Shown: positions 19,921 to 27,732, numbered from the stretch's first letter. The stretch: 64,000 nt of DNA from Acidobacteriota bacterium (GCA_022072205.1 JAJVID010000137.1:12331-76330); one strand, 5' to 3'. Translations and numbers: made by a program. Notes: generated by a model from the sequence alone, not told the origin.

Positions 19921-22900
19921 TCAGAGCGTGATTCCGTCGTCGCTGCGTCCCAGAATCCGCGCCACGTTTTTCGCCAGCGCCACCGGTTCGACGGGCTTGG
20001 CCAGGTGGCGTTGGAATCCGGCGGACAGCGCGCGCTCTTTGTCCTGCGCCGAGGCGAAGGCTGTCAGCGCGATGGCCGGCACGTCGGCGCCGTCTTCCTG
20101 CGGCAGCGCGCGAATCTGCTGGATCAGCGCGTAGCCGTCCTCATCCGGCATGCCGATGTCGGAGACCAGAACGTCGGGTTGCCATTGGCTGAAAATTTCC
20201 ATCGCTTCGGCGGCTGATCCGGCGGCGCGAACCTCGGCGCCGTAACGCGCGAGCATCACGCTCAGCACTTCGCGCGTGTCGTGTTCGTCATCAACCACCA
20301 GCACGCGCACGCCACGCAACGTGCCCGACCGCGTTTCGTCGCCTTCGGGTCGCACGGGCCACAGCGTCGAACTTTCATCCTCGCCGCTCTGAACAGCGAG
20401 CGGCAGCGTAACCATGAAATCCGATCCCTGGCCTTCGCCCCGGCTGTAGGCGTAAATCGCGCCGCCGTGCAGTTCGACGATGTGTTTGACGATGGCCAGT
20501 CCGAGTCCCAGTCCGCCCTGACGCCGCTTCGATGTGCTGTCAACCTGAGAGAAGCGGTCGAAGATGGTCGGCAGAAATTCGGGATCAATTCCCTGCCCGG
20601 TGTCGCTGACGATCAGCAACGCTTTGTTCTCCAGACGTTCGAGCCGGACTTCGATCAATCCTCCCTGCGGCGTGAATTTGATCGCGTTCGACAGCAGGTT
20701 CCAGACGACCTGTTTCAACCGCTCGGTGTCGCCGTTGAACGGGCCGACCCAGGGTTCGAGCACGATCTGCATTCGCAGGTTTTTCGCTTCGACCGACGGA
20801 CGCACGGCGTCAACTGCGGCTTCGACTACGGACATCAATTCGACCGGGCGGATTTCCAGACTCAGTTTTCCGGTGGTGATGCGCGACGCGTCGAGCAGAT
20901 CGCCGACCAGATGCGCCTGCGATTTCGCGTTGCGTTCGATGGTCAACAGCGCGCGTTCAGCCGACGCGCGGTCGAGCGCGCCCGCGCGCAGCATCTGCGC
21001 CCAGCCGAGAATCGCCGTCAGCGGCGCGCGCAGTTCGTGCGAGATCATCGCCAGAAAATCGTCTTTCAACCGGCTCGCCTCTTCCGCCATCCGGCGGGCT
21101 TCCTGCTCGCGTTTCAGGAAAGCCGCGCGCTGCTCTTCGACCCTGCGGCGCTCGACGCCCTGCGTGATCGTGTCGGAGATCGAGGCCAGAGCGTTCAACG
21201 AATCGGCTTCGAGTTTGTGGCGGGCGAACGCCGCCAGCACGCCGACTACGCGGTCGCCGACCATCATCGGGTATCCGGCGAAAGAAACCATCCCTTCGCG
21301 TTCGGCCCAATCTCTATTCTCTTCGCGCGGATCGGCCGCCACGTCGTTGGTCAAATGCGGCGTCTTCTCTTCGGCGATCAAACCGATTCTGGATTTGCCC
21401 ACCGGCACGCGCGCTTCGGGCACGTCAAGACTCGTGTACATTCCCGCGCTGGCCTGAAGTTCGAGCGTCTGCTCTTTCTCGTTCAGCATCCAGATGCGCG
21501 TGAGCGCCGCGTCGAGATGATCAACAATCGCATCGGCGCATTTCTGCAGGACGCCACCCAACGTCGCTTCGTCGTCGGTCAGCGCTAAACCGACGTCGGC
21601 TCGCAGCGCGGCCTGATGGTTAAGGCGCTGCCTGGCTCGCTCCTCGCGCTTACGCTCGCTGATGTCGCGTCCAATGCCCTGGATGCCGACCGGGCGGCCA
21701 TCTTCATAAATCAAGCGCGCGTTCACTTCCATTGGCAGACGGCTGCCATCTTTGCAAATGACCTCGATCTCATAAGGAGCAGGGTTGGCCTGACCCGTGA
21801 TTCTGTCGGAGATTGTCTTGCGAACCAGTTCCAGATATTCCGGGGCGACGATCCGGCCAATGCTTATCTGCTGAATTTCGTCGCGCTCATAGCCCGTGAC
21901 CTGCTCGGCCATCAGATTCATCGAAGTGAACCTGCCTTCGAGATCGCAGGTGTAGATGATGTCGTTGGCGTTGTCGAACAACTCCTGATAGCGCGTTTCG
22001 GCGGCGTGGCGCGCGGCTTCGGCGTGGCGGCGGTCGGTGATGTCGCGGATCAGGCTCATCACCAGAATGCCATCTTCGGTGTCTATCTGCCGCCGTGCGA
22101 CCTCAGCCTGGAACTCGCGCCCCTTGCGGTCAGCCAGCGTGAACTCGAATTGCTCGCTCACGCTTGTCGGCTGGGCGTAGTAATAATCATCGAGTTCCAG
22201 CGGCGAATCGTGATGAATGGCCGCGATGTCTTCCTGCTGCCCGCGCAGATGTTCCGGCATCAACGCCTCAACGCCCTGGCCCAGAAGCTCGTCGCGTTTG
22301 TAGCCGAACATTTTTTCGGTCTGCGAATTGACCAGCACGATGCGGCCTTCCTGATTGGCCAGGATGATCGCGTCAGGCGCGAATTCCAACAGTTCCTGGA
22401 ACCGCGTGCGCGCCGCGACCAGGCTGTTGATCAGGCTGCGGTGTTCGCGCATGTCGCGCGCGACGGCCAGCACACCTGTGATCTTGTTCTGCTTGTCATG
22501 CATCAGCCCGAGCGAGAAGCTGACCGGAATCGCCGAACCGTCCATCGTGCGAACGTCTACTTCGAGATTGGTCAAACGGCCCGTCGGAGCGATCTCCATC
22601 AGCTTCCACGGCGTGGCCGGAATCTCGTCGGAGCCGCAGACGGCGGTCAGCGGGCGACCGAGGATCGAAGTCTCCGGGCATTCGAGCAGCGAAGCCGCAG
22701 CCGGGTTGGCGCGGATGACGCGGCCCGAACGATCCGTCAGAAACAGCGCTTCGGTCATCGAAGAGATGACCTGCTGAAAGAGGTCTCGCGTTTCGGCGAT
22801 CTCGGAAGTGCGGCGCTCAAGCTCGAACTGCGCGTTGGTCAGTTCAGCGTAAGCGCTCTGCAGGTTGGCGAACATGTCCGGCCATGCGGCTTCGTGCAAA

Positions 22901-22974
22901 CGTCTGGCGTCGTCCTCGCGGTCGTGACGGTCGGCAGTGTCGGTGTTTTTGAATTTCCAATTCGGCAAACGCAT
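19921..22974 (-). CDS. Hybrid sensor histidine kinase (coiled coil, 3 PAS-like, GAF-like, HisKA, HATPase_c, C-terminal receiver)
   Basis: 1017 aa. H-box [16 protein letters not shown]-boxes DTGQGI / [10 protein letters not shown], receiver VLVVDDEHD...[13 protein letters not shown]...KP. Starts 59 bp downstream of the hydrogenase-like gene, same strand, ggaggt RBS. Confidence 0.85.
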
Positions 22975-23033
22975 TTCTATTACCTCCAGTGTCGCAAGCG
23001 AATGGCGCTTGATCCCAGCAAATCAGTTATAAA

Positions 23034-26790: not shown

Positions 26791-26827
26791 TATTTCATAT
26801 TTCACATGCGCTATTTCATATGAAATA
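26791..26827. promoter_or_regulatory. AT-rich repeat/palindrome in the gap between the small and large subunit genes
   Basis: TATTTCATA at 26791..26799, and a perfect 16-bp palindrome TATTTCATATGAAATA at 26812..26827, inside a 135-bp gap in otherwise GC-rich DNA. Confidence 0.4.
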
Positions 26828-26868
26828 TGATCACGCCTCGGAATTGTTGCCTGCGCGCTTATTGACGA

Positions 26869-27732
26869 TCAAAACGCCGGGTCCGGACGAGCCAGAGCCA
26901 GATAACTATCCGCGAAGTCGCGTTCGGTGCAGCCGATGCAGCTTCCGCCGACGCGGGCGCATCCGCCGAAGTTTCTCAACCACCCGGTCACGGGAACCGG
27001 GCACTTGACGGTCGGGCGGTTCGACAGATCGAACCCGACCGCAGGCGGATATTCAACGCGTGGTGGCAACGGATACGTTTCGTGGTTGTAAAGCCAGCGA
27101 GGACGGCGTTCCTCATCCAAATCAAGGGGCACCAATTGAGCCAGATGGAGGAAGACGTATATGAGCGTCTCAATAAAACCTTCGCCAGTTGGAGCGCATC
27201 CCGGCACATTGACTACAGGCAATCCGCTGGAACTGAAACCGCCGCGACTTCTGAAATCGCGGCCCAGATAATCTTCCAGCCCTTTCGCGCCTGTCGGATT
27301 GCCGTCCGCCGCGGGAATGCCTCCCCAGCTTGCGCAACTTCCAATCGCTATCACAGCCTCAGCCTGCGGAGCCAGCCGGTTCACCCAATCGGCGACAGTG
27401 ACCGGACGGCCATCAGCGGAGGTTCCCAGCCTGGAGAAACTCCCTTGTCCAGCCCGCGATTCATCAGCGATGGCGCCTTCGAGCACGAGCACAAAAGGCG
27501 AGAGCCTTCCATCCGCAGCCTGCTCCAGATTCGCCAGGAAAGCGTCGCCGCTCTCCGTCGCCAGATCAGGATGAACGAGGATGACGCGCGGCACGTCGGG
27601 CACATTGCCCAAAATCAGGTCTTCGATGCCGGGTTCGGACGAACCCAACATCGCCATCGTGCAGCCGTCACAGCCTGCGCCGCTCAGCCAGATCAGATAC
27701 ACCGCTTCGAGCGAGGACACTTCGCTCTGCAT
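26869..27732 (-). CDS. [NiFe]-hydrogenase small-subunit homologue, no Tat leader, 8 Cys only
   Basis: 287 aa. [23 protein letters not shown] and VPGCAP give the proximal-cluster pattern. A C-terminal C-x13-C-x6-C-x2-C (…[11 protein letters not shown]) is present. There is no RRxF leader and no H-x2-C / C-x5-C distal-cluster pattern. aagaggag RBS. Confidence 0.8.

Follow-up and report, generated by a model that had tools for sequence, protein, structure and literature searches.

Gene layout of the locus

The window analysed here, a 64,000-nt stretch of DNA, comes from a soil Acidobacterium. A preliminary description had placed four co-oriented hydrogenase-like and kinase genes on its minus strand, and each of the four open reading frames was confirmed in position and length. 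The genes and associated features are as follows:

27733..28073, minus strand: upstream intergenic region of 341 bp, presumed promoter/leader of the operon
27732..26869, minus strand: S, hydrogenase-like small subunit, 287 aa (Pfam Oxidored_q6, E 2.9e-21, and NiFe_hyd_SSU_C)
26790..26830, no strand given: AT-rich inverted repeats ATATTTCATAT / ATATGAAATAT in the S/HL-A spacer, no role assigned
26733..24919, minus strand: HL-A, large-subunit homologue, 604 aa (PF00374, E 1.1e-55)
24843..24918, minus strand: HL-A/HL-B spacer containing two hairpins, one of them perfect over 16 bp
24842..23034, minus strand: HL-B, large-subunit homologue, 602 aa (PF00374, E 2.6e-70)
22974..19921, minus strand: kinase, 1017 aa (Pfam 3xPAS-GAF-HisKA-HATPase-REC)
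22435..22899, minus strand: kinase residues 26–180, N-terminal helix and PAS1, putative docking/signal-receiving module

The S/HL-A, HL-A/HL-B and HL-B/kinase spacers measure 135, 76 and 59 bp, respectively, and a Shine–Dalgarno sequence, AAGAGGAG, can be read 5 nt upstream of the S start codon. A search for the sigma-70 consensus gave no match, so the promoter position given above follows from the gene layout. Terminator-like sites in the operon were not above chance (12 found versus 11 expected). The double hairpin in the HL-A/HL-B spacer is very stable (dG −46.3 kcal/mol, z −5.3; 0 of 200 shuffles folded equally well); the arms of its perfect hairpin lie at 24878–24893 and 24899–24914, and an outer stem pairs the AGGA ribosome-binding site of HL-B with the end of the HL-A reading frame. 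Locus L013, the closest relative, does not share this hairpin, and its HL-B starts 11 nt past the HL-A stop.

The small subunit lacks the distal cluster

The S protein contains exactly eight Cys and no twin-arginine motif, as had been described. Four of the Cys correspond to the ligands of the proximal cluster (C21, C24, C133 and C179) and four to those of the medial cluster (C244, C258, C265 and C268). Alignment with HofK of group 1h (41% identity) and a HylS-like protein of group 1l (42% identity) revealed that the distal-cluster loop is deleted, leaving a 10-residue gap across the distal-cluster Cys; the distal-cluster Cys of five HylS-like sequences are likewise absent from S, which ends 19 residues beyond its last Cys. 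This pattern holds throughout the sensor-type S proteins: all eight Cys are invariant in 43 of 43 full-length sequences, two 5′-truncated ones miss only the first two Cys positions, and the distal-cluster Cys are absent in 45 of 45 sequences. With dN/dS of 0.04–0.13 (0.06–0.13 for the S of this window), S is the slowest-evolving component of the system. The missing Tat signal had been taken as a hallmark of sensors, but groups 1h and 1l are natively Tat-less, so the trait is inherited.

Only one large subunit retains the Ni–Fe ligands

The two large subunits are 54% identical to each other and both score far above the PF00374 cutoff of 25.8 bits (HL-A, 190 bits; HL-B, 238 bits). The previously noted motifs were all found again, namely the L0 boxes RVSGA and RTGGR, the L1 box RVCGLCSGAN of HL-B, the L1 box of HL-A, in which only C119 is left, and the HL-B end at ...SFDPCLHCAVH-stop with no C-terminal extension. 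In a test for the four ligand Cys (RxCGxC and DPCxxCxxH), HL-B had all of them (C114, C117, C596 and C599), together with the canopy Arg R523 and His528, and HL-A had only C119. At the position of the L1 His, HL-B has Asn (N121). Of the 124 core columns common to group 1l, single-L sensors and HofG, HL-B keeps 108, and the four Cys are kept in every full-length HL-B orthologue cluster among P0001–P0024 (74–87% identical to HL-B), with dN/dS of 0.11–0.15. The four invariant Cys, R523, H528 and the conserved core columns together point to an intact site in HL-B.

HL-A, by comparison, has lost the entire C-terminal CxxCxxH: it ends at ...RSFDP-TGA, both Cys and the His are gone, and one of the four Ni–Fe ligands is left. 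The preliminary description recognised two divergent large subunits but missed that HL-A is ligand-less and cut at SFDP and that the HL-B site is intact. None of the 32 loci with an HL-A gene encodes the second L1 Cys or either of the C-terminal Cys, the first L1 Cys is also missing in most HL-A orthologues (SRARGTSSVAH and similar), and 31 of 32 end in SF[DA]P-stop. HL-A nevertheless keeps 92 of the 124 core columns and evolves with dN/dS of 0.12–0.17, similar to HL-B and the kinase. An AF2 model of HL-A showed a complete large-subunit fold (pLDDT 83.6, pTM 0.89), the top PDB match of which in Foldseek was 5AA5_C (TM 0.86/0.92). The conserved ligand loss, the purifying selection and the confident full-fold model matching 5AA5 argue for a functional but non-catalytic protein. 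Judged by its sequence, HL-B is a potential hydrogenase and HL-A a fold homologue only, predicted to be incapable of binding Ni–Fe; it would be a folded protein kept by selection, with a structural or regulatory role in place of a catalytic one.

Two other views of HL-A were considered. The TGA codon that follows SFDP in HL-A takes the very place of the first C-terminal Cys codon, and two further TGA codons and the strong hairpin follow, as might be expected of a decaying tandem-duplication pseudogene or of a selenoprotein in which this TGA encodes selenocysteine. However, the reading frame is intact in all 32 loci with the gene, the hairpin is not shared by L013, Rfam gave no SECIS hit, and the stop after SFDP is TGA in 29, TAA in 23 and TAG in 5 cases; because all three codons are used among relatives, it is a genuine stop. 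As far as sequence data allow, the mixed stop codons, the intact frames and the dN/dS refute this explanation, to which we assign almost no probability. The alternative that HL-A is a maturation scaffold serving HL-B from outside the mature sensor, like HupK/HoxV, draws on the position of HL-A directly upstream of HL-B and on its retained L1 C119, a feature of HupK-type scaffolds. HupK/HoxV proteins are large-subunit-like, have few Cys and hold Fe(CN)2CO before its transfer. This role is improbable for HL-A, in that most orthologues have no L1 Cys, the protein is full length, it persists where no ligand-bearing large subunit exists, and its similarity to HoxV (E 0.006, 29 bits) is no better than that of HoxV to other large subunits and hence not specific.

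The large subunits branch within group 1

Among solved structures, the best relative of HL-B was 5AA5 (group 1h HofG; E 2e-148), with all other hydrogenase structures at approximately 1e-53 or worse. Mean identity of the HL-B clade was 58% to single-L sensors, 51% to group 1l, 42% to HofG and 29% to HoxC; the HL-A clade was 46% identical to group 1l, and single-L sensors and group 1l shared 54%. In a neighbour-joining tree, the only kind of tree built, from the references that could be obtained and with no group 1m sequence among them, the large-subunit family grouped with 1h and 1l and was separated from HoxG and HoxC (bootstrap 87), and the group 1l clade (40 sequences, 99% bootstrap) excluded HL-A, HL-B and the single-L sensors. 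The tree and the identities place both large subunits inside group 1 beside 1l and 1h, contrary to the suggestion that they might fall outside groups 1–4. Nor is the missing Glu of the RIEGH box a novelty, as it had seemed to be, since groups 1h and 1l are natively of the RVxGA type (HofG, RIVGSL; HylL, RVAGAL).

The locus had also been likened to the regulatory hydrogenases HoxBC and HupUV. Three traits of group 2b are indeed present: a Tat-less small subunit (native to 1h and 1l as well), an extension-less large subunit and an adjacent PAS histidine kinase. Common descent is not borne out, however: identity to HoxC is only 27–29%, and the separation from it has 87% support in the tree that joins the family to 1h/1l. 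By these sequence comparisons, the likeness is convergence and not homology at the subgroup level.

Kinase adjacency is conserved across phyla

The kinase has the domain order N-terminal helix, PAS1 (containing ...PATPW...), PAS2, PAS3, GAF, HisKA, HATPase_c and REC, and carries the features of a hybrid two-component histidine kinase: H646 in SHELRAPL, the NAIKF, DTGQG and GLGLG boxes, and the receiver D939. Its N-terminal helix and PAS1 are the best-conserved segment across all forms. Within Blastocatellia this segment is 82–100% identical, whereas PAS2, PAS3 and GAF are 22–84% identical (typically 50–70%). In non-actinobacterial single-L systems of other phyla the helix is 60–86% and PAS1 40–62% identical; in two actinobacterial kinases, helix and PAS1 are only 20–36% identical. 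Because this segment is the most conserved across all forms, we infer that it is the docking/signal-receiving module through which the kinase would be coupled to the hydrogenase-like complex.

A PAS histidine kinase gene lies downstream of the last large-subunit gene in every locus reaching that far, and the adjacency, which had been put forward for checking, is kept in every relative examined, in at least five phyla and despite changing flanks. The S-LA-LB-kinase order recurs in approximately 30 Blastocatellia genomes. Most of the Blastocatellia relatives have lost the ligands from both large subunits (S-LA-LBdead-kinase, at least 20 species), and four have HL-A only (S-LA-kinase). Chloroflexota, Rokubacteria and members of other phyla carry a single-L version, which is frequently a neighbour of group 1l uptake operons; in L008, L016, L017 and L019 the adjoining operon matches the published Hyl layout. 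No uptake hydrogenase or response regulator was adjacent in any Blastocatellia locus examined.

The reported lack of hyp and endopeptidase genes held up, as tblastn with three pHG1 maturation-protein sets found no homologue in the 64 kb; none was found in approximately 4–6 kb past either window end, and no hyp or nickel-transport genes were found in approximately 74 kb round the locus, which counts against an assured cofactor supply for HL-B. Their absence from 64 kb says little, however, as the usual place of hyp genes is next to an uptake hydrogenase at another site in the genome.

The HL-B active-site motif set is complete and the closest characterised relatives of HL-B are respiratory high-affinity enzymes, which could suggest that S and HL-B form an ordinary 1l/1h-type energy-conserving uptake hydrogenase, with the kinase unrelated or merely co-regulated. 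We consider this very improbable: the distal FeS cluster is deleted, the 1l clade excludes HL-B, the operon has no neighbouring genes for HylTM, Rieske, cytochrome b, endopeptidase or Hyp proteins, and the kinase stays in place across phyla as its surroundings change. The absence of distal-cluster Cys and of partner genes, the adjacent kinase and the single-L version beside 1l operons instead point to a sensor rather than an enzyme.

A candidate kinase-coupled sensory hydrogenase

The window is best read as a half-degenerate form of a kinase-coupled H2/redox sensor lineage. More specifically, we give about an even chance to a cytoplasmic kinase-coupled sensory hydrogenase module of an unclassified lineage that branches from group 1l/1h and not from group 2b. 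The original proposal of a hydrogenase-derived, possibly non-catalytic sensor feeding a phosphorelay, with an architecture unlike that of characterised systems, is upheld in its core by the comparative evidence (conserved kinase adjacency and recurrence of the two-L arrangement), but the traits it stressed in the RIEGH box and the small subunit are inherited ones. Such a lineage would tie kinase signalling to descendants of the enzymes that bacteria use to scavenge atmospheric hydrogen.

Starting from gene content, motifs, ligand loss and retention, purifying selection, synteny and phylogenetic position, we infer which cofactors are present, that the proteins form a complex, that H2 is what they sense and in which direction the kinase is controlled, as follows. 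HL-B would hold a normal Ni–Fe(CN)2CO site and, since nothing follows the final His of its ligand motif, would be matured without endopeptidase cleavage and pair with the shortened S. H2 oxidation at HL-B would reduce the two [4Fe-4S] clusters of S, proximal and medial; with no distal exit cluster and no respiratory partner, the electrons would have no way out, and the signal would be the redox state that the complex takes on. That state would be sensed by the invariant N-terminal helix and PAS1 of the kinase and would set autophosphorylation of H646, from which the phosphoryl group would pass to D939 and then to a response regulator or Hpt protein. HL-A would most plausibly either sit in a second S, so that the assembly is asymmetric (S·LA / S·LB), or serve as a kinase-docking scaffold. 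The mechanism has a precedent in H2 sensing by RH-HoxJ-HoxA (PMC10073562).

The ligand-less Blastocatellia systems retain S, its eight Cys, the kinase and its N-helix/PAS1, so the conserved core function in this class cannot require a Ni–Fe site or H2 oxidation. This leaves a possible, although somewhat doubtful, explanation in which the system is an FeS-based redox, O2 or NO sensor: the hydrogenase fold would be a scaffold, the clusters of S would sense, possibly reached via former gas channels and the emptied active-site pocket of the large subunit, the HL-B Cys would be a relic or bind another metal, and H2 would not be the physiological signal. The strong purifying selection on the FeS Cys, kinase and N-helix/PAS1 of the ligand-less systems, the slow evolution of S and the lack of nearby hyp genes agree with it. 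Retention of the four Cys, the canopy Arg and the core columns in HL-B orthologues, by contrast, is hard to explain without a working Ni–Fe site; the dead second large-subunit copy carries R523Q where HL-B keeps Arg, and in the ancestral form, with its single L, the site is complete and the genes lie next to H2-uptake operons. The last two points likewise speak against the FeS-only reading.

Comparison with known systems

The group 2b 'histidine kinase-linked' sensors, HoxBC-HoxJ-HoxA of C. necator and HupUV-HupT of R. capsulatus, resemble the locus in several respects. Their small subunit is likewise cytoplasmic and Tat-less, HoxC also ends exactly at CxxCxxH with no cleavable extension, an amide residue stands in for the L1 His (Gln in HoxC and Asn in HL-B), and the gene for a soluble PAS histidine kinase lies directly downstream. 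They differ in that HoxB has three FeS clusters and 16 Cys, including the distal-cluster columns, whereas S has two clusters and lacks the C-terminal extension of HoxB, a peptide that serves oligomerisation and kinase binding. Furthermore, the kinase here is a 1017-aa hybrid with three PAS domains, GAF and REC, the window encodes two large subunits of which one is ligand-less, and no hyp genes, hoxA-type regulator or uptake hydrogenase adjoin the operon.

Large-subunit folds that persist without Ni–Fe cysteines are also found in NuoD/Nqo4 of complex I and in Ehr/Mbx-type group 4 proteins, precedents for a change to a structural, scaffolding or different function. These, like HupK/HoxV, an accessory of MBH, belong to other branches, whereas HL-A is a full-length group 1 type whose operon also encodes a small subunit and a kinase. 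The closest solved structure for both large subunits, group 1h/5 HofKG/HhySL (5AA5), shares the RIVGSL-type L0 without Glu and the Tat-less small subunit; HofG is 42% identical to HL-B and 38% to HL-A. It differs in the 24-aa cleaved extension of HofG, a dedicated protease and hyp cluster, the three clusters of HofK and a respiratory role with no kinase. Instead of the group 1h/5 signatures L1 TSRICGICGDNH and L2 SFDPCLPCGVH, HL-B has ASRVCGLCSGAN and SFDPCLHCAVH-stop, and its locus contains neither hyp genes nor a protease gene.

The gene context of group 1m (Hhm) of Actinobacteriota, in which S and L occur with HybD, an FeS-assembly protein, a CooC-type ATPase, TPR, BirA-like and DUF1059 proteins (PMC9561532), is absent from the locus. 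A kinase-linked group 1 class is not described in the HydDB, group 1l and group 1m papers examined, and the literature searched holds no description of the S-LA-LB-kinase lineage. By sequence, the closest described subgroup is group 1l HylSL of Hymenobacter roseosalivarius (Ortiz et al., bioRxiv 10.1101/2020.08.06.239558), in which HylS carries three [4Fe-4S] clusters and the genes are ordered HylS - HylTM1-5 - HylL - Rieske HylE - HupD. Its L0 and L1 boxes are of the same type (PVTRVAGAL, SRxCGxCGGVH). Unlike group 1l, however, the present locus has no HylTM1-5, Rieske HylE or HupD, its HL-A has no Ni–Fe site, and its S is approximately 130 aa shorter and belongs to a kinase-linked operon. 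The C-terminal extension of group 1l, with its CACG motif, is kept in the single-L sensors and is gone from HL-B.

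A four-gene hydrogenase–kinase module

The preliminary description placed four co-oriented genes on the minus strand, and ORFs were found at exactly these places.

Genes of the module
27732..26869, minus strand: S, hydrogenase-like small subunit, 287 aa; Pfam Oxidored_q6 and NiFe_hyd_SSU_C
26733..24919, minus strand: HL-A (LA), large-subunit paralogue, 604 aa; Pfam PF00374
24842..23034, minus strand: HL-B (LB), large-subunit paralogue, 602 aa; Pfam PF00374
22974..19921, minus strand: kinase, 1017 aa; Pfam 3xPAS-GAF-HisKA-HATPase-REC

The spacers S/HL-A, HL-A/HL-B and HL-B/kinase measure 135, 76 and 59 bp, respectively. 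The sequence also bore out the claims that S has no twin-arginine leader and only 8 Cys. Terminator-like sites in the operon were not above chance; a sigma-70 promoter scan gave no match. The absence of hyp and endopeptidase genes from the 64 kb likewise held in tblastn searches with three full C. necator maturation-protein sets, and neither these nor an uptake hydrogenase lie in the approximately 4–6 kb past either window end. The remaining window genes, which include esterases, glycoside hydrolases, a TonB-type receptor and an ECF sigma pair, contain none related to H2.

The large subunits fall in the group 1h/1l lineage

The best solved match of HL-B was HofG (PDB 5AA5; E = 2e-148), from the group 1h 'actinobacterial-type' hydrogenase of C. 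necator, with the remaining hydrogenase structures at approximately 1e-53 or worse. Further comparison used references from plasmid pHG1, namely HoxG (1d), HoxC (2b), HoxH (3d) and HofG (1h), and 78 loci from GTDB genomes. Mean identity of the HL-B clade was 58% to single-large-subunit relatives of other phyla, 51% to group 1l-type large subunits, 42% to HofG and 29–30% to HoxC and HoxG; HL-A and HL-B are 54% identical to each other. The neighbour-joining tree (100 bootstraps) separated group 1h, group 1l and the kinase-linked family from HoxG/HoxC with 87% support, left the kinase-linked family outside the 1l clade (99%) and united HL-A, HL-B and a third lineage in one Blastocatellia clade (86%). 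We apply the name 'group 1l' to operons adjoining some of the relatives because they fit exactly the published layout of HylS, five small ORFs, HylL, a Rieske protein and an endopeptidase.

Two features that had been described as anomalous, the altered RIEGH box and the small subunit without a Tat signal, are inherited traits of this lineage, because the L0 box already reads RIVGSL in HofG and RVAGAL in HylL, and Tat signals are likewise missing from HofK and from HylS-like small subunits.

HL-A is a maintained, ligand-less paralogue

HL-A stops directly after ...RSFDP, an end that the preliminary description did not record, and lacks the whole C-terminal CxxCxxH and the second L1-box Cys. Across group 1l, the single-large-subunit (single-L) sensors and HofG, 124 core columns are invariant; HL-B orthologues keep 108 of these, including the four Cys, the canopy Arg R523 and H528, HL-A keeps 92, and a ligand-less ('dead') second copy found in sister genomes keeps 94 and carries R523Q. 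All full-length HL-B orthologue clusters among P0001–P0024 (74–87% identity) have the four Cys. The L1 His is replaced by Asn in HL-B of the window, whereas HoxC has Gln in this column.

Pairwise Nei–Gojobori dN/dS values were 0.03–0.17 for S, HL-A and the second large subunit, live (four Cys kept) or dead, and mostly 0.05–0.15 for the kinase, with values up to 0.36 in Blastocatellia pairs. The ligand-less large-subunit copies are therefore maintained proteins, and the values for HL-A (0.12–0.17) rule out a pseudogene. The AlphaFold2 model of HL-A (pLDDT 83.6, pTM 0.89) superimposed on 5AA5_C with TM scores of 0.86/0.92.

Two other explanations of HL-A were rejected. A triple TGA followed by a hairpin had looked suggestive of selenocysteine at the TGA after SFDP, but the hairpin lacks conservation and orthologues differ in their stop codon (TGA 29, TAA 23, TAG 5). 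The other was a HupK/HoxV-like scaffold; HL-A has no specific similarity to these proteins, its Cys is not conserved and it is kept without any ligand-bearing partner. The two dead lineages were joined at 95% in the neighbour-joining tree, yet the three Blastocatellia lineages are equidistant (52.8–54.3% identity) and the derived states shared by the dead lineages are active-site losses only, favouring neither a single nor a convergent loss of ligands.

The small subunit is truncated and the kinase N terminus is conserved

Eight Cys are common to all 43 full-length sensor-type small subunits, whatever the form of the module, and two 5′-truncated ones lack just the first two positions. In S, C21, C24, C133 and C179 line up with the ligands of the proximal cluster and C244, C258, C265 and C268 with a four-Cys medial cluster. 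Where HofK, HylS and HoxK have the distal-cluster segment HxxC...Cx5C, the sensor-type small subunits have a shorter stretch free of Cys. The assignment of clusters follows the order of ligands established for group 1 small subunits.

The kinase has its H-box His646, N and G boxes and receiver Asp939. Its most conserved segments are the N-terminal helix and PAS1, which are 82–100% identical within Blastocatellia, compared with 22–84% (typically 50–70%) for PAS2, PAS3 and GAF. In the non-actinobacterial single-L kinases of other phyla the helix is 60–86% and PAS1 40–62% identical, the remainder being diverged or absent; the actinobacterial kinases of loci L040 and L053 are just 20–36% identical over helix and PAS1. 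This pattern of conservation suggests that the N-helix/PAS1 segment may be a docking and signal-receiving module. A search with the kinase N terminus returned mainly short fragments and is a weak guide to its wider distribution. The protein P0162 (307 aa, JGI metagenome) fuses a TIR domain (PF01582/PF13676) to an N-helix and PAS1 of the hydrogenase-linked-kinase type.

The module forms a graded series across genomes

Typing all loci by large-subunit motifs gave a graded series of five forms. Across these loci the module stays intact while flanking genes change.

Forms of the module (GTDB loci are the best 80 of 484 matches, so form counts are lower bounds)
Form (i), group 1l: all four Cys and an extension of approximately 22 aa; many phyla
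Form (ii), S-L-kinase: one large subunit with group-1l motifs and extension; Chloroflexota, Rokubacteria, Gemmatimonadota, Actinomycetota
Form (iii), S-LA-LB-kinase: LA ligand-less with SFDP-stop end, LB live with four Cys and ...CxxCxxH-stop end; window, L004, L006, L007, L013, L014, L015, L043
Form (iv), S-LA-LB'-kinase: LA and LB' both ligand-less (ASRVSGQGSGAN, SFDP-stop); the most frequent form, in at least 20 species of Blastocatellia; L010, L020–L038, L042, L044, L046, L061
Form (v), S-LA-kinase: LA only, ligand-less; L041, L055, L076, L082

Among the best 80 of 484 GTDB matches, a group 1l operon adjoins four of the nine form (ii) loci. The Ni–Fe ligand-free sister systems retain the 8-Cys small subunit and the kinase, still under purifying selection, and are arguably a bigger finding than the window itself.

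At the Chloroflexota and Rokubacteria loci L008 (13946–21860), L016, L017 and L019, the single-L module lies beside a full group 1l operon (HylS, five small ORFs, HylL, Rieske, endopeptidase and HypE); L017 and L019 also have small response-regulator genes near or between the two. A second PAS-GAF-HisKA-HATPase-REC hybrid kinase (approximately 780–810 aa) lies directly upstream of S in the closest relatives of the window (L007, 4457–6832; L013, 4079–6424; L043, 6237–8585), where the window has an amidohydrolase gene.

A possible path from hydrogen sensing to a ligand-less sensor

In function, the ancestral single-L form seems analogous to HoxBC–HoxJ, with an independent origin within the 1l/1h lineage. 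It has an intact Ni–Fe site, a small subunit with no exit cluster and a kinase, often with an uptake operon alongside to regulate. The RH–HoxJ–HoxA system, which needs Hyp proteins, provides the precedent (PMC10073562). In the window, HL-B with S would oxidise H2 and reduce the two FeS clusters, whose redox state the kinase would read through its N-helix/PAS1, with HL-A serving as a non-catalytic structural or regulatory subunit. We consider the chances evenly balanced that the module senses H2, or H2 together with redox state.

The chief reservation is that, in sister genomes, the module of the Blastocatellia outlives complete loss of the Ni–Fe ligands; the conserved core function there is therefore not H2 oxidation and is most simply FeS-based redox or gas sensing. 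Extended to the window, pure FeS redox or gas sensing seems rather unlikely. A broader reading, which we hold as doubtful, is that the Blastocatellia systems record how a [NiFe]-hydrogenase was exapted step by step into a Ni–Fe-free signalling machine, with the window a transitional stage still integrating H2. The series would run from a group 1l uptake enzyme, through a single-L H2 sensor with kinase and a duplicated form in which one subunit is live and the other dead (the window), to wholly ligand-less complexes. In this end form, the truncated small subunit would sense a gas or redox signal with its two FeS clusters alone; the signal might gain access by way of the gas channels and the emptied active-site pocket, and would drive the kinase by the invariant N-helix/PAS1. 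If such exaptation is true, the window would represent the first group 1-type family of pseudo-hydrogenase sensors.

In HydDB, group 2b is the sole [NiFe] class linked to a kinase, and every group 1 enzyme counts as respiratory. The group 1l and group 1m papers mention no kinase or sensory relatives, and the literature searched, with most subscription journals outside its scope, contained nothing relevant on kinase-linked group 1 hydrogenases, pseudo-hydrogenases or two-large-subunit sensors. The window varies a known kind of system, the H2 sensor with a kinase, and is unusual in its origin from the atmospheric-H2 lineage and in its conserved ligand-less paralogous subunit; the wholly ligand-less sister systems could be categorically new, if their function is established.

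For the regulation of high-affinity hydrogenases in bacteria that live on atmospheric H2, the kinase-linked 1l/1h-lineage sensor, which lies beside Hyl operons in phyla other than Acidobacteriota, is a concrete candidate. It could sense H2 directly in soil members of the Chloroflexota, Rokubacteria, Gemmatimonadota, Actinomycetota and Acidobacteriota; H2 sensing in the literature covered is confined to group 2b systems. The conserved ligand-less large subunits show that the group 1 hydrogenase fold can persist in a non-catalytic role, and the forms offer a clean natural series for how a metalloenzyme turns into a signalling scaffold. Sensor-lineage genes share 51–58% identity with group 1l large subunits, so a metagenomic survey that goes by best hits could place them among the atmospheric H2 oxidisers and inflate Acidobacteriota estimates.

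Spacer structures and further observations

The HL-A/HL-B spacer (24843–24925, minus strand) can fold into a double hairpin with a perfect 16-bp stem (dG −46.3 kcal/mol, z −5.3), in whose outer stem the last HL-A codons pair with the HL-B AGGA ribosome-binding site. The 14-mer recurs in a third, partial copy at 24851–24864. The hairpin might couple or limit HL-B translation, and is a local feature, since it is absent from the closest relative. The S/HL-A spacer contains AT-rich inverted repeats at 26790–26830 (ATATTTCATAT/ATATGAAATAT, plus a 14-nt pair) that could be an operator or internal promoter element. Short tandem heptamer-like repeats (for example, GGATTGC GGATTGT AGATTGC; GTCAGTT; GGACTGA) make up the spacers directly 3′ of dead large-subunit genes at many Blastocatellia loci (L010, L020–L037 and others).

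Other degenerate or extension-less large-subunit lineages in a 50%-identity representative library (drawn from P0175, P0176, P0180, P0183 and P0196) include RACGTDSVAH with an SFDV end, RSSGPGSGAH with an SFDS end, RCCGYHGGQH and an 802-aa protein with SFAPD...; P0180 (563 aa) is another Cys-bearing lineage without extension. Nine GTDB MAGs titled Heliomicrobium/Heliobacteriaceae (Bacillota; L020, L025, L027, L030, L033, L036, L044, L046 and L087) carry loci nearly identical to Acidobacteriota/Blastocatellia-labelled ones, L020 matching L010 in gene sizes and identities, and on this likeness their labels look wrong.

Rfam and tRNA scans of the 64-kb window were empty. The stretches 4059–9074 and 12481–13967 hold a Planctomycete-type pair of a PSCyt1/PSCyt2/PSD1 protein and a DUF1501 protein, and an ECF sigma factor with a zf-HC2 anti-sigma protein; in the right half (47771–63362), AXE1/Abhydrolase_7 esterases are densely packed.
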